Shown here: one piece after another, positions 4,501 through 64,000 of the stretch | Position numbering within the stretch: the stretch's first letter is position 1 | Layout of the letters: every line of letters starts with the position of its first letter | The notes under the pieces: model-generated | Told to the model about the DNA's origin: nothing | Database searches by the model: none | Seen by the model: the letters and a program-made list of their open reading frames with translations, nothing else | DNA from: Porphyridium purpureum | Taxonomy: Eukaryota | Assembly (NCBI GenBank): GCA_008690995.1 | Contig: VRMN01000014.1 | Location: forward strand, 1-64,000 | Reading direction: 5' to 3' | Length of the DNA stretch: 64,000 bases | Translations under genes and position numbers: made by a program

Positions 4501-4730
4501 ATGCATTCATCGCAACTGGACTTTACGCTTGCGTCCAAGAATCGGGACCCCAGGAAATTATGCGACGCTCCACTGTCAATCAAGAAGTCGATTTTTGAAC
4601 CACTCACTTTCCCATGTTTGTAGAAGAGCCTTGACCTCGCACCCTCGTGCGCAACACCTTCCACAACACCCATTACAGGAGGCTCCATTCCCCTCGAGAT
4701 CTCCTCCTGTCTTGGCTCTCGAGGTCTTAG
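1524..4730 (-). pseudogene. pol: pol of A1 (protease-integrase-RT-RNaseH) with an in-frame nonsense codon
   Basis: FLIDSGASHNF protease; HELTH..CETC and DDE residues (GIDLVE, RTDDGNEF, QERF); copia RT (KCRLVAGGN, KALYGL, LYVDD); RNaseH (YTDADFAG, STSESEL). ORFs 2220-4688 and 1524-2177 share a frame, split by TAG at 2220-2222 where family B has Trp (GRLLWLART). Confidence 0.9.
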
Positions 4731-5674: not shown

Positions 5675-5691
5675 TTTCTCCAAACAACCGG

Positions 5692-5703
5692 GCGATGATA
5701 CCA
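5692..5703 (-). promoter_or_regulatory. Primer binding site TGGTATCATCGC (tRNA-iMet-like)
   Basis: Directly follows the LTR end; identical 12-mer in A and B copies; TGGTATCA matches the common iMet PBS. Confidence 0.8.
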
Positions 5704-6455
5704 CTTGGAATTTCTCCCTTTCTGCTTTGTAACCGAATCAACAAAACCGGACCGCTTCACCGATAACAGGAACTGGAAACCGCCACACCCCGGAAACTGA
5801 CAAACCGACGACGAACCGAGACACCGAAACGAACGGAAGGACAAGCAGGACAATCAGAGAAAAGTGGCTAGAAAGGAAGAGAGGACAGAAAATTCAACTT
5901 ATAGGGGACTACGAGAGGGAGTGGACCGGTCTTGACAAGTGAAGGGTGATGGAAGGTACGTTTAAACCCCAGCTGCCTTTTTAAAAACACTCCAGACCGA
6001 TATCCGCTCGCACAACACGCTAGCCTGCCTCTCCCGCAAATCCAACCCAAGTCTTCCAACGACTGCCTCAATCCAACTAACCAATTCTCTTTTTATTCTA
6101 TTTGCCCTTACCTCTTCTTCTACCTTGACCTGGAAATTCCTGGGAACCAGCTTGCCCCTTCGTCCTTTTATACCCTTCGTCCTTGCTCTTTCCAGCAAGG
6201 ACGGGAGAACAAATTTCTCCAACAGGACGAATTTCCACCACAGGTTTTGATTCGTTCCACAGCTCGCAACCACAGCCGGCCACGTATCCGGAAAATGGCC
6301 GGGAGGGCGCGTCAAGAACGAATCCAGAAGCTTCGGCCGGCCTTTGACCTTTGCACAAGGCCACACAAAACGACAATGACAAACATTTCGCAGGTCCGAG
6401 ATCATCACGCTTCTCGAACAATCTTTCATCATAGAACTTTCTAGGGTTTTGTACT
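5704..6455 (-). repeat. 5' LTR of A1, missing its first 45 nt
   Basis: Matches 741-1491 with about 7 substitutions; ends at GTACT, where the telomeric array begins. Confidence 0.9.
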
Positions 6456-6920
6456 AGAGTAACCCTAGAGTAACCCTAGAGTAACCCTAGAGTAACCCTA
6501 GAGTAACCCTAGAGTGTAACCCTAGAGTAACCCTAGAGTAACCCTAGAGTAACCCTAGAGTGTAACCCTAGAGTAACCCTAGAGTAACCCTAGAGTAACC
6601 CTAGAGTAACCCTAGAGTAACCCTAGAGTAACCCTAGAGTAACCCTAGAGTAACCCTAGAGTAACCCTAGAGTAACCCTAGAGTAACCCTAGAGTAACCC
6701 TAGAGTAACCCTAGAGTAACCCTAGAGTAACCCTAGAGTAACCCTAACCCTAGAGTAACCCTAGAGTAACCCTAGAGTAACCCTAGAGTAACCCTAGAGT
6801 AACCCTAGAGTAACCCTAGAGTAACCCTAGAGTAACCCTAGAGTAACCCTAGAGTAACCCTAGAGTAACCCTAACCCTAGAGTAACCCTAGAGTAACCCT
6901 AGAGTAACCCCACAGAGTAA
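6454..6920 (+). repeat. Telomere-like tandem array (TAACCCTAGAG)n, ~42 units, C-rich strand on +
   Basis: Near-perfect 11-mer tandem repeat containing TAACCCTA; variants are two units with an extra GT and two short TAACCC units; degenerate at the right end. Confidence 0.9.
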
Positions 6921-10923: not shown

Positions 10924-11696
10924 CATGGCTTTAAATTCTCGCACGCTTGATGATGACAAGCGCACGAGCCCGGATGACACAACCCTTCTCAGATGACCGA
11001 ACCCCAGCAACACGACGCACACAACACAGACGACGAATACCCGGGGCGTGGAAAATCCAACGTATAGGGCCTCTACTATTGCCTTTCGCGTCGGCACAGA
11101 CAGCACCGGTCTCGACAGGGGCAGGGTGTCGTAACGGACAAAGCCGCCGTCTGCCTTCAGTGCTCTAAGAGCACCGAAACCCCCCAGACACGATGTGCTG
11201 CTGGCTCTGCTACACAGGCTCAGCAAAAGGCCCCACGCCTTCCGACGACCACGCCCAGGCACCCGACACCAAAGAACAAACTCCTCTTTTATTCTCTGTG
11301 TCCTACTCCCTTGCCTCTCCTTCTTCCGCTCTAAAGAAAATCCGGGGAACCGCACAGGCCCGCGCCCATTATATACCCCGCCGTCCTTGCTGTCCTTGAC
11401 GCGGAAGGGAGAAATTATTTCTCCCAAAGGCTGGGCTTTCCTCCGTTCGTTCCACAGAACGAAGCCACAGCCAGCCACGTCAGCAAGCGGCTCAATGGGT
11501 GCTGGCCGGCCGCCAAGCGGCTCCTGCTTCCCTCGGACACGCGACTCCGGCTCCTCGGGGCGAAAGACAACAATGCACAAACCAGAGGTACAGGGTAAAA
11601 AAACCACGTGGGCGAAAAAGCCCCTGTACCTCAAACAATTCCGAGACGCCGTACCTCCGGGTGTACACCCAGGGCGTCTCTCGGACCGGAACACTT

Positions 11697-14600
11697 TTAA
11701 TCCATGCTCCTCCTTCCGATCTGAGGGACGCGTAACATAGTCCAACACCTGATATGACCTTCCGGAAACAAAGGTTTTGTCATCAAGTCGGACACGTTTT
11801 CCCCCGTCCTCACATATTCCAATCTCACCAGCTTTTGCTTCTCGCAAACTTGGTGTATCCACGCCAAGTCCGTGGCTCTGGTCACTGCCATGTGATGCAA
11901 CTTTGGCGAGTAGCCCATCTTGACCGCACGGAGAACAACTTGACTATCACAAAGCAGGGTCAACGCATAATCACCCTCCTGCACGCTTCGAAGAAACGAC
12001 AATGCCGGAAACAGAGACAACTGCACCGCTTCTTCCAGAGCGGCCATCTCAGACTCAGAGGTCGAAGAGCTCACAAAGCGTTGCCTTCTGGAGCTCCAGT
12101 CGACCAGATACTTGTTTCCACCCGCGACCAAGTACGTCACTCGTCCAGACGTCGACTTGCGCGTTTCCGGACATCCAGCGAAGTCGGCATCAGCATAGCC
12201 CAAGACGCTTACGTCACCGACCTTCAATGACGTCATCCGCAAATACTCAAGTGGTTCACGAGGAACCTTCAAGTATTGCATGACGCGAACCAGGAGTCTC
12301 TCAGCTGCGACGTTCCAGCTATCCACGTACCGAGCCACCACTCCAACTGCGTACGAGATATCCGGTCTGACCGTCCTGGCCAACCACAGCAGCCGCCCAA
12401 CATGCTCGCGTATTTTCAGATGTCCATGTTCGACTTGAACATCCAATACAGCGTCAGCATTCATCTTCTCACCTGGTGATTTCACCGCTCGCAGCACCTG
12501 CCCAAGTTCTTCTTCGAATTCCTTCACCACCAAAGCTTGGTAGTGATCATGATCCAACGAAAGCCGTGCCGCCGACTCCGAGATCGTGAGACCTAGGAAC
12601 CTCAACGGGGTACCTTCCGAGAGGACTTCTGGCTCCTTCTCAATGAGGAACTCTGACCTCAACTCTCGAAATATCTCACCCCGATCCTTCTCGGCACACG
12701 CGAGCAGGCCATCATCGACATACAAGGCCAAGAGTGCAACAGATGCACTTCCCGCCATCTTTTTCACGTATACATTCTTCTCGCCGTGAATCAAATCCCA
12801 CCCGAACTTCTGAAGTTTTCTGCGGGCATCGATGGAAAAGTCAGACCCGCTTCTTGGCAAGCCATAAAGCGCCCTTCTCAAGCGAACGAGAAGTCCATCA
12901 CCCCCTCCTGGAACATGAGGGGGCAACATGGCAAACGTCGGTGGTCCTGACAAGTCAGCGTGTAAGTACGCCGACGTCACATCGAACGACACGATTTTCA
13001 ATCCCAGGATCGCGGCCAAAGCTATCAACATTCTGATTGCAGACAGGCCCGCGGGCACCTCATAGTCAAACACATCCTGAGTGACCTTCCCTGAGGCATC
13101 CCAAATCCTATTTCCACCAGCAACAAGCCGACACTTGACCTTGCGAAACTCCTCCGGAAGCTCAGCGAACTTCAATCCGAATATAAAGTGTGTCCGCACA
13201 AATCGTGCGCCTGGGACCTTGAGAGCTTCTTCCCTTGAAATAGGTTGCTCATCCCATACCTTGAATCGAATCATCAAGTCCACTTCTTTTTGCATGGCTT
13301 CTCTTCCAGCCGAAGAAGCCAGAGCTTGGCTCGTCTGCAACAAAGTTGTCAAGTTCAATTGCGGTGTTTCTGGAGCAACTCCTGCGCGTTGCCTCCAATT
13401 TTCCTCCGAGAGGCCCATATTATGAGCCCGGGCTCGCACATCCTTTCCGTTTCTTGAATCGCGGAACACTGCCTTGTATTCTTGCAGAGTTCTTTCCCAC
13501 TTCCCCCAGCCAAAGAGCCGTAAGCCATCCATGATGGCCTGATCCTCTTCCCGGCTCCAAGATACCCTGGGTTTTCGTTTCCCCCTTCTTCCAACAGGTA
13601 GGGGAACATCCTCCTCCAAGTTCCCGGATTCACGCGCCTCGGCCGTATTCGTAGGCAACACCATAGTCTCTTGACTATCCGGTTCTTCCTGCCTAGAGTG
13701 AAAGTCGATTTCACCCTCACGTGCCGAGACCTCCTCGTCATCCCTTGTTTCCAAAGTCCGCATTGGAAACACTTCAGGGAACGCCTTGAAGTCCTGAGTG
13801 CGAGTCAGCCTCGGTGCCGCACTCGTCCACTCCTCCTGAGGAAGGACCCAGATTGCCAGCGGATGCTCCGCAACTCCAACAAGGACTCCAATCTTTCCTC
13901 TGGGTGCATACTTGTTCTCAGGTTGATCATTCTTGAACACCACCTTGCATCCAAATGGTACTGCTACCTTCCCCCGCTTCCATCTCTCACCGTACCTCAT
14001 TTCATACGGAGACTTCCCAGACCTCTTGTCTGGGTGCAGCCGATTGAACATGAAGACGAAATGCTGAGCGGCATGCAAAAACCACCGCTTTCCCAGCCCA
14101 GACTGCAGGAGATTTGCTCGTACCCCCTGATTCAAAGTATGATGGAAACGTTCCTGTTCAGCGTGGCTATTTGGTCTATGTGGGACGCCAATCTCATGCT
14201 TCACGAGATTCTCCCGTACCAAATTGCTCACATTTCCCCTGAACTCGTTTCCATCATCTGTCCTCAGTACCTTTGGCCATCCTCGCCCGGCTTGCACGCT
14301 TGTCCAAGCTTCAGCAACCGCCGTATGCGTTTTGGCTCTCAATCCTGCCAGTGTGGCCCACCTCGTCGCTCTATCGATGTGCGTCAGTATATACTTTGCT
14401 CCATCGATGGCTTCCACGTTACGTCCGGGCTCCACCAGGTCGATCCCAACTTCGTCATTGAACGACAAAGTGGACAAGTCCTTCTCCAGCCTTCTTGCTG
14501 GTCGGCTCTTGATCTTGGCCACAACACACGTCTCACAATCATCCCGCATCGGCATGTAAGTCAACGCATGTTCCATCCCGGCCATCTTTCCTTCGACCCC

Positions 14601-15116
14601 TTCACTGGCACTCTCCTCTTCTCCATCGTACGCTTGATTTCCGCTTGACTCGGAAAGAGCGTCCACGACATTCACCATCGCACAATCTTCCACATTTTCA
14701 AGTCCCAAGTCCATCGAACCCCTCTGCCAATCAATCCTCGGGTTCACGCGACTCAGCCAGTCCCACCCGAGAATTGCATCCATTTGCAGCGGTCCGACAT
14801 AAAACTTGACCGGCCCTTTCCAGAACCCAAGATCAACATGCTGCAACACCGGGCCATGCACTAAGACACTTTGCCCACCCGCAAGCTTGACCATTCCGTT
14901 CTCGCGCCCTTCAAATCTGCCGACAAAGCGAGATCCAAGAAAATTGTGCGATGCTCCGCTGTCCACCAGAAATTGGACAGACTCGCCATCTAAAGTTCCA
15001 CGCTTGTAGAGCAACCTCGACGCCGCATCAGCGCGCCAGACCTCACCTACAAAGCCCATCCCGGGAGGTTCCGTTCCCCTCGAGTGCACCTCCCAACTTC
15101 TCCCTCGAGGTTTTAG
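11697..15116 (-). CDS. pol: Pol of B1 (protease, integrase, Myb-like domain, copia RT, RNaseH), predicted Gag-Pol fusion by -1 frameshift
   Basis: Uninterrupted frame with FLVDSGASHNF, DDE motifs, WSREEDQAIMDGLRLFGWGKW, LYVDD, YADADFAG; stop lies just inside the 3' LTR. Confidence 0.92.
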   Translation of the reverse strand, partial: LKPRGRSWEVHSRGTEPPGMGFVGEVWRADAASRLLYKRGTLDGESVQFLVDSGASHNFLGSRFVGRFEGRENGMVKLAGGQSVLVHGPVLQHVDLGFWKGPVKFYVGPLQMDAILGWDWLSRVNPRIDWQRGSMDLGLENVEDCAMVNVVDALSESSGNQAYDGEEESASEGVEGKMAGMEHALTYMPMRDDCETCVVAKIKSRPARRLEKDLSTLSFNDEVGIDLVEPGRNVEAIDGAKYILTHIDRATRWATLAGLRAKTHTAVAEAWTSVQAGRGWPKVLRTDDGNEFRGNVSNLVRENLVKHEIGVPHRPNSHAEQERFHHTLNQGVRANLLQSGLGKRWFLHAAQHFVFMFNRLHPDKRSGKSPYEMRYGERWKRGKVAVPFGCKVVFKNDQPENKYAPRGKIGVLVGVAEHPLAIWVLPQEEWTSAAPRLTRTQDFKAFPEVFPMRTLETRDDEEVSAREGEIDFHSRQEEPDSQETMVLPTNTAEARESGNLEEDVPLPVGRRGKRKPRVSWSREEDQAIMDGLRLFGWGKWERTLQEYKAVFRDSRNGKDVRARAHNMGLSEENWRQRAGVAPETPQLNLTTLLQTSQALASSAGREAMQKEVDLMIRFKVWDEQPISREEALKVPGARFVRTHFIFGLKFAELPEEFRKVKCRLVAGGNRIWDASGKVTQDVFDYEVPAGLSAIRMLIALAAILGLKIVSFDVTSAYLHADLSGPPTFAMLPPHVPGGGDGLLVRLRRALYGLPRSGSDFSIDARRKLQKFGWDLIHGEKNVYVKKMAGSASVALLALYVDDGLLACAEKDRGEIFRELRSEFLIEKEPEVLSEGTPLRFLGLTISESAARLSLDHDHYQALVVKEFEEELGQVLRAVKSPGEKMNADAVLDVQVEHGHLKIREHVGRLLWLARTVRPDISYAVGVVARYVDSWNVAAERLLVRVMQYLKVPREPLEYLRMTSLKVGDVSVLGYADADFAGCPETRKSTSGRVTYLVAGGNKYLVDWSSRRQRFVSSSTSESEMAALEEAVQLSLFPALSFLRSVQEGDYALTLLCDSQVVLRAVKMGYSPKLHHMAVTRATDLAWIHQVCEKQKLVRLEYVRTGENVSDLMTKPLFPEGHIRCWTMLRVPQIGRRSMD

Positions 15117-16069
15117 TTTTCCGGGCCTCCCGCCAAGTGCCCATTCCGCTTTGGGCAATTGGGTTTGATGTGGCCGCGCTGCCCGCAATGGTAGCATCTG
15201 ACTTTGCCCATGTCCGCATGCTTGCGCTTCTCCGGCTGGCGTTTCTCCACGACGCCCAAATCCATTGGCGCCGTCCCGGCATACGACGAGCTGTTCCGGT
15301 AGTTTGGACTCGAGGCGCCATGAAAAGCCTCCCTCATGTCTCCTCCAAACCTACCAACCTGCTCCGCAGCCAACGCCGCCCTCAGCGACTCTTCCAGCGT
15401 CTTCGTGTCCTGACGCGCCACCTCAAGGCGAAGCTTCTCCTTCAGGCCGAGAGTGAAGATGGTGTTGAGCTCGGCATCTGTCACACTATCCACGGACAGA
15501 GCCACCATCCTCAGGCGCTGCTCAAACTCAGCAACAGTCATCTTGCCCTGCTTCAGCTGATACAAGTTCGTTCGAGCAGTCAGGTATGCCTGCGGCGGCT
15601 CAAATGCCGTCCGCACGAAGCTCGCGAACGCATTCCAACCGGACTCGGCCAATGCCATCCTCTGTTCTTCAGGGCGAGCTGCCCACAACAGCGCGGCATC
15701 CTTCTCAAAGAAGCGCGACGCTACGATCACCTTCTGCGACTCGAGCGCTCCAGCTGGCATGCACATGTCCAAGTCTTGCTTCATCCTCGACAACCACTCG
15801 TTCACAACGAGTTTGTCGCGCTGTCCGTCGTATTTCCTCAAGCTGCGTCCAATCAGCGATGCAACGGTCCTTTCCGTCTCGCCGGGACCAGCTGACACAG
15901 ATGCCTGATGCATCACATTCTGCAGCATCTCCTGCAAGAGGCGATTTCCCTCCTGCAGCTGCACAATCATCATTTCTTGTCCTCCGATACGAGCATGAAG
16001 CTGGTTGAAAGCTTCAATCCACGACGCGCCGCCCTGCAGGCCCTGCACGTCCATTCCCTCAGAATCCAT
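15113..16069 (-). CDS. gag: Gag of B1
   Basis: 318 aa, clearly homologous to A gag; PMDLG and CYHCGQRGHIKPNC. Confidence 0.92.
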   Translation of the reverse strand: MDSEGMDVQGLQGGASWIEAFNQLHARIGGQEMMIVQLQEGNRLLQEMLQNVMHQASVSAGPGETERTVASLIGRSLRKYDGQRDKLVVNEWLSRMKQDLDMCMPAGALESQKVIVASRFFEKDAALLWAARPEEQRMALAESGWNAFASFVRTAFEPPQAYLTARTNLYQLKQGKMTVAEFEQRLRMVALSVDSVTDAELNTIFTLGLKEKLRLEVARQDTKTLEESLRAALAAEQVGRFGGDMREAFHGASSPNYRNSSSYAGTAPMDLGVVEKRQPEKRKHADMGKVRCYHCGQRGHIKPNCPKRNGHLAGGPEN

Positions 16070-16903
16070 CTTCGCCGATGCGATGATACCACTTTAAATT
16101 CTCGCACGCTTGATGATGACAAGCGCACGAACCCGGATGACACAACCCTTCTCAGATGACCGAACCCCAGCAACACGACGCACACAGCACAGAGAACACA
16201 ACCACACGACGCACACAACACAGACGACGAATACCCGGGGCGTGGAAAATCCAACGTATAGGGCCTCTACTATTGCCCTTCGCGTCGGCACAGACAGCAC
16301 CGGTCTCGACAGGGGCAGGGTGTCGTAACGGACAAAGCCGCCGTCTGCCTTCAGTGCTCTAAGAGCACCGAAACCCCCAGACACGATGTGCTGCTGGCTC
16401 TGCTACACAGGCTCAGCAAAAGGCCCCACGCCTTCCGACGACCACGCCCAGGCACCCGACACCAAAGAACAAACTCCTCTTTTATTCTCTGTGTCCTACT
16501 CCCTTGCCTCTCCTTCTTCCGCTCTAAAGAAAATCCGGGGAACCGCACAGGCCCGCGCCCATTATATACCCCGCCGTCCTTGCTGTCCTTGACGCGGAAG
16601 GGAGAAATTATTTCTCCCAAAGGCTGGGCTTTCCTCCGTTCGTTCCACAGAACGAAGCCACAGCCAGCCACGTCAGCAAGCGGCTCAATGGGTGCTGGCC
16701 GGCCGCCAAGCGGCTCCTGCTTCCCTCGGACACGCGACTCCGGCTCCTCGGGGCGAAAGACAACAATGCACAAACCAGAGGTACAGGGTAAAAAACCACG
16801 TGGGCGAAAAAGCCCCTGTACCTCAAACAATTCCGAGACGCCGTACCTCCGGGTGTACACCCAGGGCGTCTCTCGGACCGGAACACTTTTAATCCATGCA
16901 TGG

Positions 16904-26004: not shown

Positions 26005-26022
26005 TTGCGACGCGCCGCGCCG

Positions 26023-49295: not shown

Positions 49296-50209
49296 AGGCG
49301 TTTTTCAGGTAGGGTGGGCCCTGCGGTTCGGCCATACCATAGTACAGTTGCTTCGGGCTACAGTACAGTTGCGTCGGACCATGGATTAAAAGTGTTCCGG
49401 TCCGAGAGACGCCCTGGGTGTACACCCGGAGGTACGGCGTCTCGGAATTGTTTGAGGTACAGGGGCTTTTTCGCCCGCGTGGTTTTTTACCCTGTACCTC
49501 TGGTTTTGTGCATTGTTGTCTTTCGCCCCGAGGAGCCGTAGTCGCGTGTCCGAGGGAAGCAGGAGCCGCTTGGCGGCCGGCCGGCACCCATTGAGCCGCT
49601 TGCTGACGTGGCTGGCTGTGGCTTCGTTCCGTGGAACGAACGGAGGAAAGCCCAGCCTTTTGGGAGAAATAATTTCTCCCTTCCGCGTCAAGGACAGCAA
49701 GGACGGCGGGGTATATAATGGGCGCGGGCCCGTGCGGTTCCCCGGATTTCTAGAGAGCGGAAGAAGTAGAGGCAAGGGAGAAGGACACAGAGAATAAAGG
49801 AAGAGTTGTTCTTTGGTGTCGGGTGCCTGGGCGTGGTCGTCGGAAGGCGTGGGGCCTTTTGCTGAGCCTGTGTAGCAGAGCCAGCAGCACATCGTGTCTG
49901 GGGGGTTTCGGTGCTCTTAGAGCACTGAAGGCAGACGGCGGCTTTGTCCGTTACGACACCCTGCCCCTGTCGAGACCGGTGCTGTCTGTGCCGACGCGAA
50001 GGGCAATAGTAGAGGCCCTATACGTTGGATTTTCCACGCCCCGGGTATTCGTCGTCTGTGTTGTGTGCGTCGTGTGGTTGTGTTCTCTGTGCTGTGTGCG
50101 TCGTGTTGCTGGGGTTCGGTCATCTGAGAAGGGTTGTGTCATCCGGGTTCGTGCGCTTGTCATCATCAAGCGTGCGAGAATTTAAAGTGGTATCATCGCA
50201 TCGGCGAAG

Positions 50210-51166
50210 ATGGATTCTGAGGGAATGGACGTGCAGGGCCTGCAGGGCGGCGCGTCGTGGATTGAAGCTTTCAACCAGCTTCATGCTCGTATCGGAGGAC
50301 AAGAAATGATGATTGTGCAGCTGCAGGAGGGAAATCGCCTCTTGCAGGAGATGCTGCAGAATGTGATGCATCAGGCATCTGTGTCAGCTGGTCCCGGCGA
50401 AACGGAAAGGACCGTTGCATCGCTGATTGGACGCAGCTTGAGGAAATACGACGGACAGCGCGACAAACTCGTTGTGAACGAGTGGTTGTCGAGGATGAAG
50501 CAAGACTTGGACATGTGCATGCCAGCTGGAGCGCTCGAGTCGCAGAAGGTGATCGTAGCGTCGCGCTTCTTTGAGAAGGATGCCGCGCTGTTGTGGGCAG
50601 CTCGCCCTGAAGAACAGAGGATGGCATTGGCCGAGTCCGGTTGGAATGCGTTCGCGAGCTTCGTGCGGACGGCATTTGAGCCGCCGCAGGCATACCTGAC
50701 TGCTCGAACGAACTTGTATCAGCTGAAGCAGGGCAAGATGACTGTTGCTGAGTTTGAGCAGCGCCTGAGGATGGTGGCTCTGTCCGTGGATAGTGTGACA
50801 GATGCCGAGCTCAACACCATCTTCACTCTCGGCCTGAAGGAGAAGCTTCGCCTTGAGGTGGCGCGTCAGGACACGAAGACGCTGGAAGAGTCGCTGAGGG
50901 CGGCGTTGGCTGCGGAGCAGGTTGGTAGGTTTGGAGGAGACATGAGGGAGGCTTTTCATGGCGCCTCGAGTCCAAACTACCGGAACAGCTCGTCGTATGC
51001 CGGGACGGCGCCAATGGATTTGGGCGTCGTGGAGAAACGCCAGCCGGAGAAGCGCAAGCATGCGGACATGGGCAAAGTCAGATGCTACCATTGCGGGCAG
51101 CGCGGCCACATCAAACCCAATTGCCCAAAGCGGAATGGGCACTTGGCGGGAGGCCCGGAAAACTAA
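50210..51166 (+). CDS. gag: Gag of B2
   Basis: Same protein as B1 gag. Confidence 0.92.
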   Translation: MDSEGMDVQGLQGGASWIEAFNQLHARIGGQEMMIVQLQEGNRLLQEMLQNVMHQASVSAGPGETERTVASLIGRSLRKYDGQRDKLVVNEWLSRMKQDLDMCMPAGALESQKVIVASRFFEKDAALLWAARPEEQRMALAESGWNAFASFVRTAFEPPQAYLTARTNLYQLKQGKMTVAEFEQRLRMVALSVDSVTDAELNTIFTLGLKEKLRLEVARQDTKTLEESLRAALAAEQVGRFGGDMREAFHGASSPNYRNSSSYAGTAPMDLGVVEKRQPEKRKHADMGKVRCYHCGQRGHIKPNCPKRNGHLAGGPEN

Positions 51167-51216
51167 AACCTCGAGGGAGAAGTTGGGAGGTGCACTCGAG
51201 GGGAACGGAACCTCCC
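51157..51216 (+). promoter_or_regulatory. Predicted -1 ribosomal frameshift signal (G_GAA_AAC plus H-type pseudoknot)
   Basis: pol is in the -1 frame relative to gag; stems CCTCGAG/CTCGAGG and GGGAGGT/ACCTCCC; equivalent structure in family A. Confidence 0.8.
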
Positions 51217-54200
51217 GGGATGGGCTTTGTAGGTGAGGTCTGGCGCGCTGATGCGGCGTCGAGGTTGCTCTACAAGCGTGGAACTTTAGATGGCGAGTCT
51301 GTCCAATTTCTGGTGGACAGCGGAGCATCGCACAATTTTCTTGGATCTCGCTTTGTCGGCAGATTTGAAGGGCGCGAGAACGGAATGGTCAAGCTTGCGG
51401 GTGGGCAAAGTGTCTTAGTGCATGGCCCGGTGTTGCAGCATGTTGATCTTGGGTTCTGGAAAGGGCCGGTCAAGTTTTATGTCGGACCGCTGCAAATGGA
51501 TGCAATTCTCGGGTGGGACTGGCTGAGTCGCGTGAACCCGAGGATTGATTGGCAGAGGGGTTCGATGGACTTGGGACTTGAAAATGTGGAAGATTGTGCG
51601 ATGGTGAATGTCGTGGACGCTCTTTCCGAGTCAAGCGGAAATCAAGCGTACGATGGAGAAGAGGAGAGTGCCAGTGAAGGGGTCGAAGGAAAGATGGCCG
51701 GGATGGAACATGCGTTGACTTACATGCCGATGCGGGATGATTGTGAGACGTGTGTTGTGGCCAAGATCAAGAGCCGACCAGCAAGAAGGCTGGAGAAGGA
51801 CTTGTCCACTTTGTCGTTCAATGACGAAGTTGGGATCGACCTGGTGGAGCCCGGACGTAACGTGGAAGCCATCGATGGAGCAAAGTATATACTGACGCAC
51901 ATCGATAGAGCGACGAGGTGGGCCACACTGGCAGGATTGAGAGCCAAAACGCATACGGCGGTTGCTGAAGCTTGGACAAGCGTGCAAGCCGGGCGAGGAT
52001 GGCCAAAGGTACTGAGGACAGATGATGGAAACGAGTTCAGGGGAAATGTGAGCAATTTGGTACGGGAGAATCTCGTGAAGCATGAGATTGGCGTCCCACA
52101 TAGACCAAATAGCCACGCTGAACAGGAACGTTTCCATCATACTTTGAATCAGGGGGTACGAGCAAATCTCCTGCAGTCTGGGCTGGGAAAGCGGTGGTTT
52201 TTGCATGCCGCTCAGCATTTCGTCTTCATGTTCAATCGGCTGCACCCAGACAAGAGGTCTGGGAAGTCTCCGTATGAAATGAGGTACGGTGAGAGATGGA
52301 AGCGGGGGAAGGTAGCAGTACCATTTGGATGCAAGGTGGTGTTCAAGAATGATCAACCTGAGAACAAGTATGCACCCAGAGGAAAGATTGGAGTCCTTGT
52401 TGGAGTTGCGGAGCATCCGCTGGCAATCTGGGTCCTTCCTCAGGAGGAGTGGACGAGTGCGGCACCGAGGCTGACTCGCACTCAGGACTTCAAGGCGTTC
52501 CCTGAAGTGTTTCCAATGCGGACTTTGGAAACAAGGGATGACGAGGAGGTCTCGGCACGTGAGGGTGAAATCGACTTTCACTCTAGGCAGGAAGAACCGG
52601 ATAGTCAAGAGACTATGGTGTTGCCTACGAATACGGCCGAGGCGCGTGAATCCGGGAACTTGGAGGAGGATGTTCCCCTACCTGTTGGAAGAAGGGGGAA
52701 ACGAAAACCCAGGGTATCTTGGAGCCGGGAAGAGGATCAGGCCATCATGGATGGCTTACGGCTCTTTGGCTGGGGGAAGTGGGAAAGAACTCTGCAAGAA
52801 TACAAGGCAGTGTTCCGCGATTCAAGAAACGGAAAGGATGTGCGAGCCCGGGCTCATAATATGGGCCTCTCGGAGGAAAATTGGAGGCAACGCGCAGGAG
52901 TTGCTCCAGAAACACCGCAATTGAACTTGACAACTTTGTTGCAGACGAGCCAAGCTCTGGCTTCTTCGGCTGGAAGAGAAGCCATGCAAAAAGAAGTGGA
53001 CTTGATGATCCGATTCAAGGTATGGGATGAGCAACCTATTTCAAGGGAAGAAGCTCTCAAGGTCCCAGGCGCACGATTTGTGCGGACACACTTTATATTC
53101 GGATTGAAGTTCGCTGAGCTTCCGGAGGAGTTTCGCAAGGTCAAGTGTCGGCTTGTTGCTGGTGGAAATAGGATTTGGGATGCCTCAGGGAAGGTCACTC
53201 AGGATGTGTTTGACTATGAGGTGCCCGCGGGCCTGTCTGCAATCAGAATGTTGATAGCTTTGGCCGCGATCCTGGGATTGAAAATCGTGTCGTTCGATGT
53301 GACGTCGGCGTACTTACACGCTGACTTGTCAGGACCACCGACGTTTGCCATGTTGCCCCCTCATGTTCCAGGAGGAGGTGATGGACTTCTCGTTCGCTTG
53401 AGAAGGGCGCTTTATGGCTTGCCAAGAAGCGGGTCTGACTTTTCCATCGATGCCCGCAGAAAACTTCAGAAGTTCGGGTGGGATTTGATTCACGGCGAGA
53501 AGAATGTATACGTGAAAAAGATGGCGGGAAGTGCATCTGTTGCACTCTTGGCCTTGTATGTCGATGATGGCCTGCTCGCGTGTGCCGAGAAGGATCGGGG
53601 TGAGATATTTCGAGAGTTGAGGTCAGAGTTCCTCATTGAGAAGGAGCCAGAAGTCCTCTCGGAAGGTACCCCGTTGAGGTTCCTAGGTCTCACGATCTCG
53701 GAGTCGGCGGCACGGCTTTCGTTGGATCATGATCACTACCAAGCTTTGGTGGTGAAGGAATTCGAAGAAGAACTTGGGCAGGTGCTGCGAGCGGTGAAAT
53801 CACCAGGTGAGAAGATGAATGCTGACGCTGTATTGGATGTTCAAGTCGAACATGGACATCTGAAAATACGCGAGCATGTTGGGCGGCTGCTGTGGTTGGC
53901 CAGGACGGTCAGACCGGATATCTCGTACGCAGTTGGAGTGGTGGCTCGGTACGTGGATAGCTGGAACGTCGCAGCTGAGAGACTCCTGGTTCGCGTCATG
54001 CAATACTTGAAGGTTCCTCGTGAACCACTTGAGTATTTGCGGATGACGTCATTGAAGGTCGGTGACGTAAGCGTCTTGGGCTATGCTGATGCCGACTTCG
54101 CTGGATGTCCGGAAACGCGCAAGTCGACGTCTGGACGAGTGACGTACTTGGTCGCGGGTGGAAACAAGTATCTGGTCGACTGGAGCTCCAGAAGGCAACG

Positions 54201-54582
54201 CTTTGTGAGCTCTTCGACCTCTGAGTCTGAGATGGCCGCTCTGGAAGAAGCGGTGCAGTTGTCTCTGTTTCCGGCATTGTCGTTTCTTCGAAGCGTGCAG
54301 GAGGGTGATTATGCGTTGACCCTGCTTTGTGATAGTCAAGTTGTTCTCCGTGCGGTCAAGATGGGCTACTCGCCAAAGTTGCATCACATGGCAGTGACCA
54401 GAGCCACGGACTTGGCGTGGATACACCAAGTTTGCGAGAAGCAAAAGCTGGTGAGATTGGAATATGTGAGGACGGGGGAAAACGTGTCCGACTTGATGAC
54501 AAAACCTTTGTTTCCGGAAGGTCATATCAGGTGTTGGACTATGTTACGCGTCCCTCAGATCGGAAGGAGGAGCATGGATTAA
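51163..54582 (+). CDS. pol: Pol of B2 (protease, integrase, Myb-like domain, RT, RNaseH)
   Basis: Same protein as B1 pol; open frame. Confidence 0.92.
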   Translation, partial: LKPRGRSWEVHSRGTEPPGMGFVGEVWRADAASRLLYKRGTLDGESVQFLVDSGASHNFLGSRFVGRFEGRENGMVKLAGGQSVLVHGPVLQHVDLGFWKGPVKFYVGPLQMDAILGWDWLSRVNPRIDWQRGSMDLGLENVEDCAMVNVVDALSESSGNQAYDGEEESASEGVEGKMAGMEHALTYMPMRDDCETCVVAKIKSRPARRLEKDLSTLSFNDEVGIDLVEPGRNVEAIDGAKYILTHIDRATRWATLAGLRAKTHTAVAEAWTSVQAGRGWPKVLRTDDGNEFRGNVSNLVRENLVKHEIGVPHRPNSHAEQERFHHTLNQGVRANLLQSGLGKRWFLHAAQHFVFMFNRLHPDKRSGKSPYEMRYGERWKRGKVAVPFGCKVVFKNDQPENKYAPRGKIGVLVGVAEHPLAIWVLPQEEWTSAAPRLTRTQDFKAFPEVFPMRTLETRDDEEVSAREGEIDFHSRQEEPDSQETMVLPTNTAEARESGNLEEDVPLPVGRRGKRKPRVSWSREEDQAIMDGLRLFGWGKWERTLQEYKAVFRDSRNGKDVRARAHNMGLSEENWRQRAGVAPETPQLNLTTLLQTSQALASSAGREAMQKEVDLMIRFKVWDEQPISREEALKVPGARFVRTHFIFGLKFAELPEEFRKVKCRLVAGGNRIWDASGKVTQDVFDYEVPAGLSAIRMLIALAAILGLKIVSFDVTSAYLHADLSGPPTFAMLPPHVPGGGDGLLVRLRRALYGLPRSGSDFSIDARRKLQKFGWDLIHGEKNVYVKKMAGSASVALLALYVDDGLLACAEKDRGEIFRELRSEFLIEKEPEVLSEGTPLRFLGLTISESAARLSLDHDHYQALVVKEFEEELGQVLRAVKSPGEKMNADAVLDVQVEHGHLKIREHVGRLLWLARTVRPDISYAVGVVARYVDSWNVAAERLLVRVMQYLKVPREPLEYLRMTSLKVGDVSVLGYADADFAGCPETRKSTSGRVTYLVAGGNKYLVDWSSRRQRFVSSSTSESEMAALEEAVQLSLFPALSFLRSVQEGDYALTLLCDSQVVLRAVKMGYSPKLHHMAVTRATDLAWIHQVCEKQKLVRLEYVRTGENVSDLMTKPLFPEGHIRCWTMLRVPQIGRRSMD

Positions 54583-55354
54583 AAGTGTTCCGGTCCGAGA
54601 GACGCCCTGGGTGTACACCCGGAGGTACGGCGTCTCGGAATTGTTTGAGGTACAGGGGCTTTTTCGCCCACGTGGTTTTTTACCCTGTACCTCTGGTTTG
54701 TGCATTGTTGTCTTTCGCCCCGAGGAGCCGGAGTCGCGTGTCCGAGGGAAGCAGGAGCCGCTTGGCGGCCGGCCAGCACCCATTGAGCCGCTTGCTGACG
54801 TGGCTGGCTGTGGCTTCGTTCTGTGGAACGAACGGAGGAAAGCCCAGCCTTTGGGAGAAATAATTTCTCCCTTCCGCGTCAAGGACAGCAAGGACGGCGG
54901 GGTATATAATGGGCGCGGGCCTGTGCGGTTCCCCGGATTTTCTTTAGAGCGGAAGAAGGAGAGGCAAGGGAGTAGGACACAGAGAATAAAAGAGGAGTTT
55001 GTTCTTTGGTGTCGGGTGCCTGGGCGTGGTCGTCGGAAGGCGTGGGGCCTTTTGCTGAGCCTGTGTAGCAGAGCCAGCAGCACATCGTGTCTGGGGGGTT
55101 TCGGTGCTCTTAGAGCACTGAAGGCAGACGGCGGCTTTGTCCGTTACGACACCCTGCCCCTGTCGAGACCGGTGCTGTCTGTGCCGACGCGAAAGGCAAT
55201 AGTAGAGGCCCTATACGTTGGATTTTCCACGCCCCGGGTATTCGTCGTCTGTGTTGTGTGCGTCGTGTTGCTGGGGTTCGGTCATCTGAGAAGGGTTGTG
55301 TCATCCGGGCTCGTGCGCTTGTCATCATCAAGCGTGCGAGAATTTAAAGCCATG

Positions 55355-57157: not shown

Positions 57158-60100
57158 TCAAAAAGACGAATTCTGATACTGTCCATGCCGAATCAATTTA
57201 CGTAAGATCAAGCCGATCGGTTCATTGGTACATTTTCATTGTGAATACGTCCGACTTTTCTGCGGTTCGTTGAGATATTTGTGATTGCACTCGTGCAAGG
57301 AAAATGTTGTGGGAGTGTCGAAATCCTCGTCAATACGATCATGCGACTGGCACTCGACTGTATCGCAAGTCTCGCTATCAATCTACTAATGACAACTGCA
57401 TCAATACAAGAGCGAAAAAAGATGACGGGTGACGGAAAAGATAGTGGAAAATAAAAAAGTAGCTAAAATTGTTGTGTAAAAAACTCAAGATTTTACGTCG
57501 TCAAGTTTCCTCTGTGGAGCATTGAATAAAACCGTACTGTTCTTGAGGTGTGGCGGGAGCTACACTAGGCACGTGGTGTGTCTTTGGGGGACGTGCCGCG
57601 CACTGGAGCTTATGTCGGGAGACCATGCCCCACTTTCAGCTATGCTCCCAGTTTTTTTCTTTTTTTGGGTTTGCCCCTTTTCCCCAACAGGGTGTAGACT
57701 GTGCGTCGGGACTCCCAACATTGATAGGAAAACCACGCAGACTAGACTCCAGACCTGCAGGTCCTGAAACTGTTCAGCAAGTGTAAGTGCTTGATGCAGA
57801 CAGGCGAGTCTGCGATCACGTGTGCTTTTCGCACCAAGTAAAGGCTTTGCACCCTCGCAACCCTCCGCGTCCAAGCTCTGTTTTCTCTTCTTAAAGATCG
57901 CTGTTCATACAGATGCATGTAAAGGATACGTCGGTCAGTCACTTTTGCTCACTTGTTAAACGTAACCCACACGTGCAATGAGCACATGCGCGGTCCAGCA
58001 ACTCTCTGACTTGCCAACATACTCTCGTACTGCACGATACTTATCAGCTACGTTCTGAATCTTGTGTCCGCTTTCAATGATATTCTCTGCATCTATTCAC
58101 GAAAGAGCCCCTTCGCCGTAGCCTTGCAGGGATCAGTGTACATGTATGTCAGGAAACAGGCTCATGTGATTGCGTTTTGGGACAAGTGTTTCTGAATTTA
58201 ATCGACATTGCCCCACAAGAGAAAGGTATACACGAGTGCGTGAAAAAAAAAGCACATACAGATTGTGCGGGACTTTGGACATGGCTCATAAGCCTGTCTT
58301 GGTTGCTCTGAAAGGATAGCTCTTAACAATGATGAGCGCGACTCATTTTCCGTCCCGGAACAAGAATTCCACAAATCAATGTCCGAGAGCAAGCGGCTTC
58401 AGCGCCTCTGGCATGCCATCTCACCCATTCCTTGCGTCAGCTACTTGTATGCCTACGCGCACATGCTCCTTCTCGCATACAATAGCTTCAAGCATGTCAA
58501 ATAGCCATTTTAAACTCTGCCTGCAAGACTTGCGCAGAAGCTCACATGTTGACAGGCACAAGCGCTCGAGCTTCGACTTTCGGCTGCAATAGTCAGAAAT
58601 TCATTTTCTTATAGATCATTCTAACCTCTCGCAATGTTTCTCAAGGCCTCTTCGTGCGGTGAAGAGCTTGCTCCTCATTTTGTACGTACCGTGGACTTGT
58701 ACACCATATGCCAAGTCCACATATCATATTTAATGACAACCAATAGGGACGATTATTATAAACTGCGTAATCGTACAAACAAGGACAGAAGGGCCATGAG
58801 CTTTGGACTGCGTTTCAATTCCATACTCCATTCCAGCTCATACACGCGCGCCCCACTTGCGCTTCGTCTTAGCGCTTCACTAGCACAGCTTGCACAAATC
58901 TCAACACAAGTATGGGAGGGGTACGAAGAAAGACTTTGCTAAAGGACCAAAGCCTAGCAGAGTCCGACGGTATTCTCTCGAAAGTGCATGCATTCGAACG
59001 ATGGAAAGGACAAAGGCGTGTCAATTTCATTACCAAGACGTGTACTATTTTAAGCTCTCTAGCTGCAAAGCGTCGAGATCGTATAGCTCGTTGTATGCAA
59101 AATCATTCAGGTGCACAAAGAAACTTCGTTGTCGGATTTCTACATGCAATTGAGCTCAAGAACAGCTTGAGGTGGGGCAGCCGTTCACAATAATATGTAA
59201 AGAATTGACTCTGAGAGAAGGTATTCGATTTTGATGGAGAGAGGACTGTGTAGAGAGTCAAGAAAAGCGGGACAAAAGTCTTCTGCTTGGATATACGATG
59301 GGTTGCGCTTTGTGTCCCTTAGCAAACGCGGTCAAAGGTTTGGAATCCGTGAGGTAGCCCTCTGCAGCGTAGCTGGACTTGTCTTTGATCGCGGGCGTCG
59401 GAAGTAGGAACGCGCTGGATTGGGATTCTATCAATTCCGGCATTGTATACGGCGCGAGCTATCAGTGCCGCAAAAGTTAGAGCAGTAAACGCTGGCAGAG
59501 TAAGGTTTCGAAAGTGTGATAGCTGGCCTAAGGAACGAGCAGAGCCCAAGCACGTTAAACATGGGAACAGCCCTGCCCGTTGCATCCGTCTCCGGAATTG
59601 CGCAACGCGTGTTCTGGGGTGAAGCAATAAGTGAGGGAGAAAGCAAAACGAACACAGATGTCTTTCATCCAGTGGGCCAGACGAACGCGTCGTCGTCTAA
59701 AATTCTGTACGAACGTCTAGCATTCGCAACCGAACTTCCAGCGTTCTACGCACCTTGGCGTTGACTGTACATCACGTTTGAAGTGTTAAAAGTAACGTGG
59801 AATTTTAGGGTTCCGCCCCGAGAGACGCCGTAGGGTTTTGAGTACAAAACCCTAGAAAGTTCTATGATGAAAGATTGTTCGAGAAGCGTGATGATCTCGG
59901 ACCTGCGAAATGTTTGTCATTGTCGTTTTGTGTGACCTTGTGCAAAGGTCAAAGGCCGGCCGAAGCTTCTGGATTCGTTCTTGACGCGCCTTCCCGGCCA
60001 TTTTTCGGATACGTGGCCGGCTGTGGTTGCGAGTTGTGGAACGAATCAAAACCTGTGGTGGAAATTCGTCCTGTTGGAGAAATTTGTTCTCCCGTCCTTG

Positions 60101-60621
60101 CTGGAAAGAGCAAGGACGAAGGGTATAAAAGGACGAAGGGGCAAGCTGGTTCCCAGGAATTTCCAGGTCAAGGTAGAAGAAGAGGTAAGGGCAAATAGAA
60201 TAAAAAGAGAATTGGTTAGTTGGATTGAGGCAGTCGTTGGAAGACTTGGGTTGGATTTGCGGGAGAGGCACGCTAGCGTGTTGTGCGAGCGGATATCGGT
60301 CTGGAGTGTTTTTAAAAAGGCAGCTGGGGTTTAAACGTACCTTCCATCACCCTTCACTTGTCAAGACCGGTCCACTCCCTCTCGTAGTCCCCTATAAGTT
60401 GAATTTTCTGTCCTCTCTTCCTTTCTAGCCACTTTTCTCTGATTGTCCTGCTTGTCCTTCCGTTCGTTTCGGTGTGTCGGTTCGTCGTCGGTTTGTCAGT
60501 TTCCGGGGTGTGGCGGTTTCCAGTTCCTGTTATCGGTGAAGCGATCCGGTTTTGTTGATTCGGTTACAAAGCAGAAAGGGAGAAATTCCAAGTGGTATCA
60601 TCGCCCGGTTGTTTGGAGAAA

Positions 60622-61569
60622 ATGGAAAGCCATGAAATGGAAATGAATGTCCCGCAGGAGAATGCGGCATGGATTGAGGCAGCTAATCAGCTGCATGCGC
60701 GCATTGCGGGACAGGAGATGATGATGGCACAAGTGCAGGAAGCGAATCGTAACCTCCATGAAATGATGCATGTTTTGTTGCGCCAGCAGACCGTGGCGTC
60801 TGGGTCTGGTGACAACGATCGTGCCATGGCCGCGTTAATTGGGCGCAGTTTGAGAAAGTTTGATGGTCAGCGTGACAAGCTCGTTGTCAATGAATGGCTG
60901 ATGCGAATGAAGAGCGACCTGGATATCTGCATGCCCGCAGATGCTTTGGACTCGCAGAAAGTGATTGTTGCAAGTCGCTTTTTCGAGAGGGACGCAGCGC
61001 TGCTTTGGGCAGCTCGTCCGGAGGAGCAGAGAAAGGGCCTTGCAGAGGCCGGATGGGATGCGTTCGCAAACTTCGTGCGCACAGCGTTTGAGCCGCCGCA
61101 GGCGCATTTGACAGCGCGCACCAATCTGTATCAGTTGAAGCAAGGGAAAATGACGGTCGCAGAATTTGAGCAGAATCTCAGGATGACAGCGTTATCAGTT
61201 GAAGATGTGACAGATGCAGAACTGAACACCATCTTCACGCTGGGCTTGAAGGAGAAACTGCGTATTGAGGTGGCCCGTCAGGACACAAGGACCTTGGAAG
61301 AATCACTGAAAGTTGCGTTGGCAGCTGAGCAGGTTGCAAAGTTCGGAGGAGATATGAGTCAAGTGATCAAGAACTCGTCATCGACTCATAGCAGGGCGTT
61401 CTCGTCGCATTCTGGTAGCGCACCAATGGATTTGGGAGCCATGGACAAGCGGAAGTCTGGCAAGACCAAAGTGAAGTGTTACCATTGTGGAGAACGTGGA
61501 CACATTAAGCCCAAATGCCCTAAATTGAAGGAGCGCTTGGCAGGTGGTCCGCCAGAGCCGGAAAACTAA
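60622..61569 (+). CDS. gag: Gag of A2
   Basis: Same protein as A1 gag. Confidence 0.9.
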   Translation: MESHEMEMNVPQENAAWIEAANQLHARIAGQEMMMAQVQEANRNLHEMMHVLLRQQTVASGSGDNDRAMAALIGRSLRKFDGQRDKLVVNEWLMRMKSDLDICMPADALDSQKVIVASRFFERDAALLWAARPEEQRKGLAEAGWDAFANFVRTAFEPPQAHLTARTNLYQLKQGKMTVAEFEQNLRMTALSVEDVTDAELNTIFTLGLKEKLRIEVARQDTRTLEESLKVALAAEQVAKFGGDMSQVIKNSSSTHSRAFSSHSGSAPMDLGAMDKRKSGKTKVKCYHCGERGHIKPKCPKLKERLAGGPPEPEN

Positions 61570-64000
61570 GACCTCGAGAGCCAAGACAGGAGGAGATCTC
61601 GAGGGGAATGGAGCCTCCTGTAATGGGTGTTGTGGAAGGTGTTGCGCACGAGGGTGCGAGGTCAAGGCTCTTCTACAAACATGGGAAAGTGAGTGGTTCA
61701 AAAATCGACTTCTTGATTGACAGTGGAGCGTCGCATAATTTCCTGGGGTCCCGATTCTTGGACGCAAGCGTAAAGTCCAGTTGCGATGAATGCATGGTCG
61801 AGCTTGCGGGAGGACAGAGAATGAAGGTGCACGGCCCCATTGTGCTTGCGGTGGACCTCGGTTTCTGGATAGGGAACGTCGAGTTTTATATCGGTCCCAT
61901 TCGTATGGATGCCATCTTAGGGTGGAAATGGCTCAAGATGGTGAATCCTAAGATTGATTGGCAGAAGGGACTGATGGAAACGAGGCCCGAGGGGAAGGAA
62001 ATATGCACGTTGGAAAATGTTGAAGAAGTGGTTCCCGAGCTTGACGGGAAAAATCAGAGCGTGGCTGCTTCGGAACACGAGTTGACTCACATGCCTATGC
62101 AAAGAGACTGTGAGACGTGTGTCGTGGCGAAGATAAAGCGACGCCCGGCCCGAAGGCTGGAGAAAGATGTCAGTGCATTGTCATTCAATGATGAAGTCGG
62201 AATTGACTTGGTGGAGCCTGGGCGAAATGTGAAGTCGGTAGATGGTTCAAAGTTTATTTTGACGCATATCGACAGAGCCACAGGATGGGTGACATTGGCG
62301 GGGCTACGTGCGAAAACCCACACGGCGGTTGCGGACGCTTGGAAAAGTGTGCAAGCCGGGAGAGGATGGCCGAAGGTTTTGCGAACGGATGATGGGAATG
62401 AGTTCAAGGGAGATGTGGGGAGACTGGTGCGTGAACACCTCATAAAGCACGAGGTGGGGATTCCGTACAGGCCAAACAGTCATGCTGAACAGGAGCGGTT
62501 TCACCACACGCTGAATCAGGGAATCCGTGCGAATCTTGTGCAGGCCGGACTCGGGAAGCGTTGGTTCATGCACGCCGCGCAGCATTTTGCGTTCATGACG
62601 AATAGACTTCACGTGGGCAGGAAGTCTGGAAAGACGCCGTTTGAATTACGACATGGTGAAAAATGGTCGCCGAGAAATCTTAGTTTGCCATTCGGGTGCA
62701 AGGTGGTCTACAAAGATGATCAGCCTGACAATAAGTATGCACCGCGAGGAAAAGTTGGCATTCTCGTCGGCGTTGGAGAGCATCCGATGGCAATTTTGGT
62801 GCTTCCTCGGGATGACTGGACGAGTGAGACCCCAAAAGTAATTCGCACTCAGGATTTTAAGGCATTTACCCATGAGTTCCCTTTAAAGGGAATTGAACGA
62901 GAGGTGGTGAGCCTGAGCCAGCAGGAAGAGTTGCCAGAAGTGGACGAACCATCCGCGGTTGAAGCGGTGCAGGACTTGGATCGTCGTATCGATGCTCTCA
63001 GAGCTAGAGAAGCGGAGCTTGAGAAAGAGATCGAGGCATTGAAAGTGAGAGTGGTTGACGAAGAACGGGCAGCAGGCACGGGTGGTCCAGTGACGATCCC
63101 ACAGTTGAACTTAACGACTTTGCTGAAAACTGGAGCGGCGTTGGCGTCTGAGCAAGGACGAGCCGCGATGGAAAAAGAAGTCAAATCCATGCTGAAATTT
63201 GGGGTATGGGATGAGAGTCCCTTGACGCTGGAGGAGGCCCGGAGGCAACCTGGTGCTCGTTTCGTACGCACACATTTCATTTTCGGTCTGAAATTTGCTG
63301 AGATGCCGGAAGAATTTCGCAAGGTGAAGTGCCGCTTGGTGGCCGGGGGAAACAGGATATGGGGGTCCGATGGAGCTGCGACGAATGACATTTTTGATTA
63401 TGAGACGCCTGCTGGTTTGTCAGCTATCCGAATGATAATAGCTGTGGCTGCAATTCTGGGCCTTCAGATTGTTAGTTTCGACATCAGCTCGGCATACCTC
63501 CATGCGGACCTGTCTGGGCCACCTACGTTTGCATACTTACCGCGTGAAATTTGTGATTCAAAAGACACAGTAGTCAGGCTGAGAAAGGCGCTGTATGGCT
63601 TGCCCAGGAGCGGCTCGGATTTCTCACAAGATGCTCGGAGGAGATTGCAAAAGTTCCAGTGGAAGCTCGTGCATGGTGAAAAGAATGTGTACGTCCGGAG
63701 AAATGCTGCAAGTTCGTCAGTTGCGTTGTTGGCTCTGTACGTGGATGATGGTCTATTAGCCTGTCGAGAGGAGGAACGCCCAGGAATCATCGAAGAATTG
63801 AAACAAGAGTTTCTCATAGAAAAAGCACCAGAACTATTGACGGAAGGAGGATCCTTGAGATTCCTGGGGACGAGCATTTCCCTCAAAAATGGGAGCGTGA
63901 GTTTGGCGAATCAAGAGTATCAAGATGTGGTCATTCGGGAATTTGAGCAGGATATTAGACGCGTATTGCGTGCCGTGAAGTCACCATCTGAGAAGCTAGA
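61566..64000 (+). CDS. pol: Pol of A2, partial (protease, integrase, coiled-coil linker, part of RT)
   Basis: Inverted copy of A1 pol with a few SNPs (e.g. FHHT here versus FPHT in A1). Confidence 0.88.

Follow-up and report, generated by a model that had tools for sequence, protein, structure and literature searches.

A long terminal repeat retrotransposon of Porphyridium purpureum with Ty3/gypsy-type Gag and protease and Ty1/copia-type enzymes, probably an inter-superfamily recombinant

The window analysed in this work comprises 64,000 nucleotides of the Porphyridium purpureum contig VRMN01000014.1 (assembly GCA_008690995.1, positions 1 to 64,000 of the forward strand), and it harbours two copies, A1 and A2, of a long terminal repeat (LTR) retrotransposon, hereafter element A, together with two copies, B1 and B2, of a second family, B. 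An initial annotation had described both families as chimeras, in which a Ty3-type Gag and protease precede the integrase, reverse transcriptase (RT) and RNase H (RH) of a Ty1-type element, and had proposed a recently active recombinant lineage between the two superfamilies. Judging from its sequence, the enzymes of element A place it in Ty1/copia and its particle proteins in Ty3/gypsy, and it has full membership of neither superfamily. The features of the two families within the window are reported in Table 1.

The motifs quoted in support of that proposal are indeed present in A. Specifically, LYQLKQGKMTVAEF, PMDLG and the CCHC knuckle of Gag were located at 50714, 51011 and 51083, LVDSGAS and DAILGWDWL of the protease at 51310 and 51499, and KCRLVAGG, DVTSAYL, ALYGL, YVDD, YADADFAG, SESE and SDLMTKPL of RT-RH at 53143, 53296, 53407, 53557, 54082, 54220 and 54487. 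Pfam assigned the Gag protein to Retrotrans_gag (1.6e-10) and Ty3_capsid (3.1e-8), both above cut-off, plus the knuckle; on Pol, Asp_protease_2 (3e-5) and RVT_2 (2.3e-16) scored above cut-off, gag-asp_proteas (3e-5) and rve (2.7e-4) below it. No match to the copia Gag families Retrotran_gag_2/3 or to Pol_BBD was found by Pfam in the A1 proteins at E<=0.1, and the Gag of A1 obtained no score at all on copia Gag profiles. The Pfam domains of Pol follow the order retropepsin families, rve, Myb and RVT_2, which bears out the placement of the integrase upstream of RT-RH: this is the copia order and not the RT-RH-integrase order of gypsy elements. The Pfam picture is the same in family B. The two front-end proteins are not fused in a single reading frame as had been described, the pol frame overlapping gag in the -1 frame. 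In A and B alike, the pol frame continues across the polypurine tract, its stop codon lying within the 3' LTR (54562-54582; 1524-1547 on the minus strand).

Table 1. Features of elements A and B in the 64,000-nucleotide window (TSD, target-site duplication)
Feature	Position	Strand	Remarks
LTR retrotransposon A1	49380..55349	+	complete element
5' LTR of A1, 808 nt	49380..50187	+	ends CATGG...TTTAAAG
Primer binding site TGGTATCATCGC	50188..50199	+	abuts 5' LTR, no spacer; identical 12 nt in family B
gag, 318 aa	50210..51166	+	Ty3-type capsid (Retrotrans_gag, Ty3_capsid), PMDLG, one CCHC knuckle
Predicted -1 frameshift signal	51157..51218	+	GGAAAAC heptamer, 5-nt spacer with gag stop, H-type pseudoknot geometry
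pol reading frame, 1217 aa stop to stop	50929..54582	+	-1 relative to gag
Gypsy-type aspartic protease	51253..51573	+	DSGAS ... DAILG
Copia-type integrase	51709..52518	+	short H-x3-H-x6-C-x2-C finger, DDE core, weak SH3 match
Myb-like domain	52711..52860	+	between integrase and RT; Pfam PF00249 6e-5, just under cut-off
Copia-type reverse transcriptase (RVT_2) and RNase H	52969..54543	+	
Polypurine tract GGAAGGAGGAG	54562..54572	+	abuts 3' LTR, no spacer; same in family B
3' LTR of A1, 777 nt	54573..55349	+	followed by CCATG, the target duplication of the twin copy
Twin copy A2	10929..16898	-	5-bp TSD CCATG; internal region versus A1: 3 differences in 4385 nt
Family B copy B1	741..6467	-	5' LTR cut by 11-nt array; one in-frame pol stop at ~2220
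Family B copy B2	59796..64000	+	runs off window; LTR ends CGTGG...TTCCAAG

The nearest named homologues of A are P. purpureum proteins, and one of them, P0010, is 94% identical over RT-RH. The second His position of the A1 integrase finger is occupied by Tyr; it is His in P0010 and in all four public sequencing runs examined. When 1.84 billion representatives were searched with a profile of the pol alignment, 150 proteins were listed, several of the database relatives being gene-model products, and 147 of these were sorted by their front end: 5 carry a gypsy-type Gag or protease (class G), 29 a divergent copia-type protease or Gag, mostly with the same short integrase finger as A (class S), 56 are classical copia (class C) and 57 have no callable front end. 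The sorting profiles were seeded on single sequences and iterated on the same set, so that these labels are partly circular; Pfam agrees with the G labels for those members where it was run. A gypsy front end was present in none of the 56 proteins labelled C. Five families, namely A, B, P0013, P0037 and P0186, were seen with Gag, protease, integrase and RT all present, at 31-71% RT-RH identity to one another, and the lineage is therefore larger than the two families on which its existence had been proposed. Among 30 matches looked up by cluster, the G members were named P. purpureum, except P0162 and the Gag-only P0007. Nothing was matched in viral contigs by the pol alignment or by P0034, a gypsy polyprotein described below. 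One metagenome scan returned 34 loci at 22-34% identity, of which 8 score on the classical copia protease profile and none on the gypsy-type Gag or protease profiles, and thus it did not extend the host range. In the S lineage, P0075, P0077, P0085 and P0170 have CCCH zinc fingers upstream of the protease and no CCHC knuckle.

The front end of A was then compared with both superfamilies. With the Gag-protease region, the sole non-self match among 7994 candidates was P0034, a full gypsy polyprotein of an oomycete. All ten Atlas rows shown for Gag correspond to Retrotrans_gag, Ty3_capsid, CCHC, RTL4, PNMA or unnamed clusters, and none of the ten carries a copia Gag family; the Atlas search with protease and integrase joined, which does not address the protease alone, gave mostly unnamed or copia-integrase clusters. 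Seven hybrid sequences, and no others, were used to build a Gag profile, on which P0034 reached 44.7 bits and another gypsy Gag, L035, 8.6 bits, against at most 3.0 bits for 102 copia-type polyproteins, gypsy and copia Gags being barely alignable with each other (hhalign 45%). The protease tree was computed on 52 rows and 100 columns (8 G, 2 gypsy, four of five caulimovirid-type loci, 20 of the 29 S and 18 random C proteases). All eight hybrid proteases joined the two gypsy and four caulimovirid-type ones with 100/98 support, apart from the 38 copia-type proteases, and five of these six references had been chosen by RT motif, not by protease likeness. Gag and protease thus did not cluster with copia lineages by either approach. 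Pairwise domain scores agree with the hybrid result, in a circular manner, since the references were chosen by those same domains. Sequence searches of the PDB gave a best E of 0.063 for Gag, on the CCHC part only, and weak matches for Pol; Foldseek returned no match at E<=0.001. The predicted Gag model (pLDDT 57) confirmed a capsid C-terminal domain and left the superfamily unseparated.

As for the back end, RT-RH falls on the copia side at 100/100 against six outgroups, and the integrase does so at 100/100 against three gypsy integrases. The G proteins form one group inside S in both the 81-row RT-RH tree (with 22 of the 63 C rows, and after removal of duplicates, concatemers and short sequences) and the 80-row integrase tree. 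In a gypsy-rooted, 33-row concatenation of integrase and RT-RH, G (83/86) stands beside three S rows (89/93), and this group lies inside a 12-row clade (96/96), itself inside S+G (100/96), with C as sister; a mixture model repeated the nesting of the hybrids three nodes deep, with supports of 97, 95 and 98. In every rooted best tree the clade of A lies inside copia, together with relatives that have a copia-type protease. The S proteases match classical copia proteases better (hhalign 97.8%) than G proteases (58.8%). In addition, P0058/P0201, a P. purpureum cluster, pairs the short-finger integrase with an S-type, that is copia-type, protease, so that the host of A seems to harbour an unrecombined relative as well.

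The junction of the two halves was bridged in one piece, from Gag through protease and integrase to RT, by contigs from three of the four public runs (covering 49796-53399, 50158-51871 and 50976-53666), and therefore the gypsy-copia join is real DNA and not an assembly artefact. Protease and integrase share one open frame. Some of the contigs carrying element A derive from RNA-labelled runs; their presence is no sign of transcription. Comparing A with B, the nonsynonymous differences (pN 0.09-0.27) are far fewer than the synonymous ones (pS 0.67-0.82) across all five domains, Gag, protease, integrase, RT and RH. Both halves are therefore under purifying selection and have descended together since the A/B split.

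The individual copies are in different states. The LTR pair of A2 differs by 2 mismatches and one indel of about 31 nt, that of A1 by 13 mismatches and 35 gap columns, and A1 has no target-site duplication at its flanks. The 5' LTRs of A1 and A2 show 11 mismatches, all in the first ~424 nt and none beyond; from this pattern, the first ~424 nt of the A1 5' LTR are read as coming from another copy. A1 is likely the product of recombination between the LTRs of two insertions, or of assembly. The near-identical LTRs reported initially are hence a property of A2 and family B and not of A1, and open reading frames were found for gag and pol of A1, while B1 has its in-frame stop and B2 is incomplete in the window. 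Recent activity is supported for the family, given the near-identical LTRs in A2 and B and the several different flanks in public contigs; for A1 itself it is weaker.

The window also contains an inverted duplication (741-16898 versus 49380-64000, 99.7-99.8% identity). On the inner side it is bounded by the LTR of element A, the match between 6935-16898 and 49380-59343 ending at the LTR. The contigs of two runs depart from the window at 49379 and continue into a different sequence common to both, which is likely a repeated flank with its site empty. At 6454-6910 an 11-nt unit with TTAGGG/GGGTTA is repeated about 42 times, likely an internal telomere-type array, in place of ~450 nt present in the duplicate and of the start of the B1 5' LTR; a few degenerate copies of this telomere-like unit lie at 49230-49300, ~100 nt left of A1.

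The LTRs start with CATGG (A) or CGTGG (B) and end with AAG, so that the elements have C..G ends and not TG..CA. These limits are set by 5-bp duplications, CCATG at A2 and AGTAA across the duplicated B copies, where the left flank of B2 equals the right flank of its duplicate B1, and they also match exact loose contig ends in several runs, those at 49379 and 50187 coinciding with the limits of the A1 5' LTR. Family B has, in addition, a perfect inverted repeat (TGGAATT/AATTCCA) two bases inside each LTR end. Most simply, these ends are read as the work of an integrase that would join the whole blunt cDNA without removing a dinucleotide, and Ty1 is known to join its cDNA ends without removal of the terminal dinucleotide.

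Gag and pol overlap at a predicted frameshift signal, and -1 ribosomal frameshifting would make the Gag-Pol protein of element A. In the predicted signal, stem 1 would pair 51169-51175 with 51195-51201 (7 bp, 19-nt loop) and stem 2 would span 9 bp. Family B shows, at 61560-61621, the same heptamer, spacer, 7-bp stem and 19-nt loop. The second stem measures 9 bp in A and 8 bp in B; its sequence differs between the two, and pairing is kept in each. The layout of heptamer, spacer and pseudoknot is that of the -1 frameshift pseudoknots of retroviruses and of PEG10. Against this prediction, plain folding of the region, by a method that cannot form pseudoknots, gave no extra stability over shuffled sequences (z 0.5). 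Copia-type elements are described as using frameshifting (Ty1), readthrough, splicing or single reading frames (PMC5580714).

A Myb-like domain follows the integrase, by Pfam, in A, P0013, P0012, P0035 and P0191, and family B has a coiled coil at that place. By its position it resembles a targeting module. Its best PDB sequence matches tie, at 23.5 bits for TRF1 and 22.6 bits for B-Myb. Telomere targeting through this domain has nothing beyond proximity in its favour: the two matches tie and family B is without the domain.

A second kind of exchange emerges from three further P. purpureum proteins, P0191, P0193 and P0194, which are gene-model products known at the protein level only. Pfam gives them a classical copia Gag and protease, and their mutual RT-RH identity is 36-38%. 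Their integrases group beside C (91/96) and their RT-RH with G (92/80), P0191 retaining the Myb domain. If these models are right, the RT-RH lineage would have changed its front end at least twice.

Compared with known systems, A shares with Ty1/copia (Pseudoviridae) the integrase-RT-RH order and phylogeny, RVT_2, the 5-bp duplication and a primer binding site that we take to be of the tRNA-Met type, the match to the tRNA end being assumed; it differs in its gypsy-type Gag and protease, the -1 frame overlap, the C..G ends and the Myb domain. Its nearest copia relatives form a marine lineage without a name, in which a short HHCC finger goes with a copia-type protease (P0042, P0044, P0045; P0058/P0201). 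With Ty3/gypsy (Metaviridae; P0034 and the Sushi-derived PEG10 and RTL4, PEG10 also using a -1 frameshift with a pseudoknot) it shares the capsid family, the PM(D/E)LG motif and the protease type, but its integrase precedes the RT, its RT, RH and integrase are copia-type, and it has no RVT_1-type RT. From a red alga, Porphyra yezoensis, Peddigari et al. in 2008 reportedly described, as the title has it, a copia element with a gypsy-like integrase, PyRE10G/PyRE1G1. This is a copia/gypsy mix like A, set apart by its description: what resembles gypsy there is the integrase, in an element otherwise close to GalEa.

The Gmr1 group likewise places the integrase before the RT in an element with gypsy parts, but it is a gypsy lineage with rearranged order, whereas the RT, RH and integrase of A are copia by phylogeny (PMC2774666). 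Plant copia elements with non-TGCA ends share the non-canonical LTR ends and the 5-bp duplication; in that survey the first T is invariable, whereas the LTRs of A and B start with C and end with AG (bioRxiv 10.1101/137141). The TG..CA ends and HX4HX30CX2C finger of GalEa, compared by description (CoRex1; PMC3587641), are both absent from A. Ancient recombination within copia has been reported (PMC6317226), and P. purpureum is credited with ~8% LTR DNA and a recent expansion (PMC6811547), the words copia and gypsy being absent from the main text of that source. Our literature search, which fell short of most subscription journals and of Repbase, found no published element that joins a gypsy Gag-protease to a copia pol and no described clade with this architecture.

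All together, these comparisons make it quite probable that A is a recombinant, in which a divergent copia-lineage ancestor swapped its gag-protease block for a gypsy one; the inter-superfamily origin proposed initially is the best-supported reading. An old swap is preferred over ancestral retention because the integrase and RT-RH nest in a divergent copia lineage in which the protease of the other members is still of the copia type. Some results weigh against it. Approximately unbiased (AU) tests rejected a position of the hybrids basal to all copia for RT-RH (p=0.032), but not for the integrase (p=0.21) or the concatenation (p=0.071), and in the concatenation the hybrids as sister to all short-finger copia, with S as one clade, were not rejected either (p=0.175). 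The low-confidence Gag model aligns with PEG10 (Z 12.7, rmsd 2.4, 84 aligned) and with Drosophila Copia (Z 11.4, rmsd 1.7, 83 aligned), the fold being shared by both superfamilies, and Asp_protease_2 also weakly matches two copia-type proteases. The gypsy references are three in all, one of them picked for its likeness to the Gag-protease of A, and the other one with a Gag, L035, reaches just the 8.6 bits mentioned above. The AU results for the integrase and the concatenation, and the common capsid fold, would suit a history without any swap, in which an early copia branch kept an ancestral gypsy-like Gag and protease and the other copia elements changed theirs. We regard such a history as improbable: every rooted best tree puts the hybrids within copia beside copia-protease relatives, the proteases of these relatives match the classical copia ones, and RT-RH rejects the basal position.

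The number of swaps is a further point, as a single hybrid origin is moderately supported (83/86 in the concatenation, 89 under the mixture model, 77/81 for the integrase). Several independent captures of a gypsy gag-protease by related copia elements in one host would agree with the 31-36% RT-RH identity among A/B, the P0013 group and the P0186 group, with a protease tree that does not join A/B with the other six hybrid proteases, with the second kind of swap in the same clade, and with the rooted RT-RH tree, in which the hybrids are split, although a single origin is not rejected there (p=0.20). A single origin takes fewer steps and comes out as the best tree in the RT-RH, integrase, rooted integrase, concatenated and mixture-model analyses, which leaves repeated capture unlikely. 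That the lineage has already been described, for instance as PyRE10G/PyRE1G1, as the CoPorcru elements or in Repbase, is rather improbable too. By its title, one publication does describe a copia element of a red alga whose integrase is gypsy-like. Two Porphyridium copia elements are named in PMC3587641, but these are placed in GalEa, with its TG..CA ends and HX4HX30CX2C finger; where the described elements have a gypsy-like part it is the integrase, and A has a copia-type, short-finger integrase and C..G ends. Finally, a misassembly, or a one-off nested gypsy front end in a dead copia element, might be suspected from the missing duplication and recombinant 5' LTR of A1, from its place at the edge of a large inverted duplication and from the gene-model origin of several relatives. 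Independent contigs across the junction, the open frame shared by protease and integrase, and a build common to five families with purifying selection on both halves make this explanation hardly credible.

Other sequences in the window are listed here as observations apart. A third, unrelated copia-like LTR element with stops occupies 21789-27441 on the minus strand (LTRs ~92% alike; in the tree, its RT-RH forms a long branch that falls outside S+G), and Gag-like and integrase-like frames resembling it lie at 17804-20473 (minus strand), where Pfam gives a weak CCHC only. Read by eye, 55536-56200, to the right of element A, holds a degenerate copia-type RT fragment, and 28506-39733, between the duplicated arms, holds host genes resembling the DNA polymerase delta small subunit, the Spb1 rRNA methyltransferase, a bZIP protein and a Pro/Ser-rich surface protein.

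Under the recombinant reading, the ancestral replacement would have been one old crossover between protease and integrase, with a donor likely chromovirus-like, judging from the single gypsy match and the Atlas neighbours. The element would then work like an ordinary LTR retrotransposon. Gag would be translated from the ATG at 50210, and a pseudoknot-stimulated -1 frameshift at GGAAAAC would yield a minority of Gag-Pol. The gypsy-type capsid would form the particle, and release of the copia-type enzymes would fall to the gypsy-type protease; reverse transcription would be primed by tRNA-Met at the primer binding site, and the integrase would insert blunt cDNA with its terminal two bases kept, giving the C..G ends and the 5-bp duplication.

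A broader reading is tentative and, in our view, more doubtful than not: gag-protease may be a module freely exchangeable across Metaviridae and Pseudoviridae. The Porphyridium RT-RH lineage would then have used three front ends (its own, a gypsy Gag-protease and a classical copia Gag-protease-integrase), inserting with unprocessed C..G ends and with a captured Myb domain steering integration, possibly to telomeric repeats. If this were true, such swaps would be hidden by classification on RT only.

In conclusion, the classification of LTR retrotransposons takes it for granted that Gag, protease and enzymes stay together within one superfamily, and proteins such as those described here are named 'Copia protein' in databases from the RT alone. 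A long-lived hybrid of several families implies that copia enzymes can be packaged by a capsid, and processed by a protease, of gypsy type. A small cultured alga offers a natural system for the limits of module exchange, for the co-adaptation of cleavage sites, and for the need for TG..CA ends and 3' processing.

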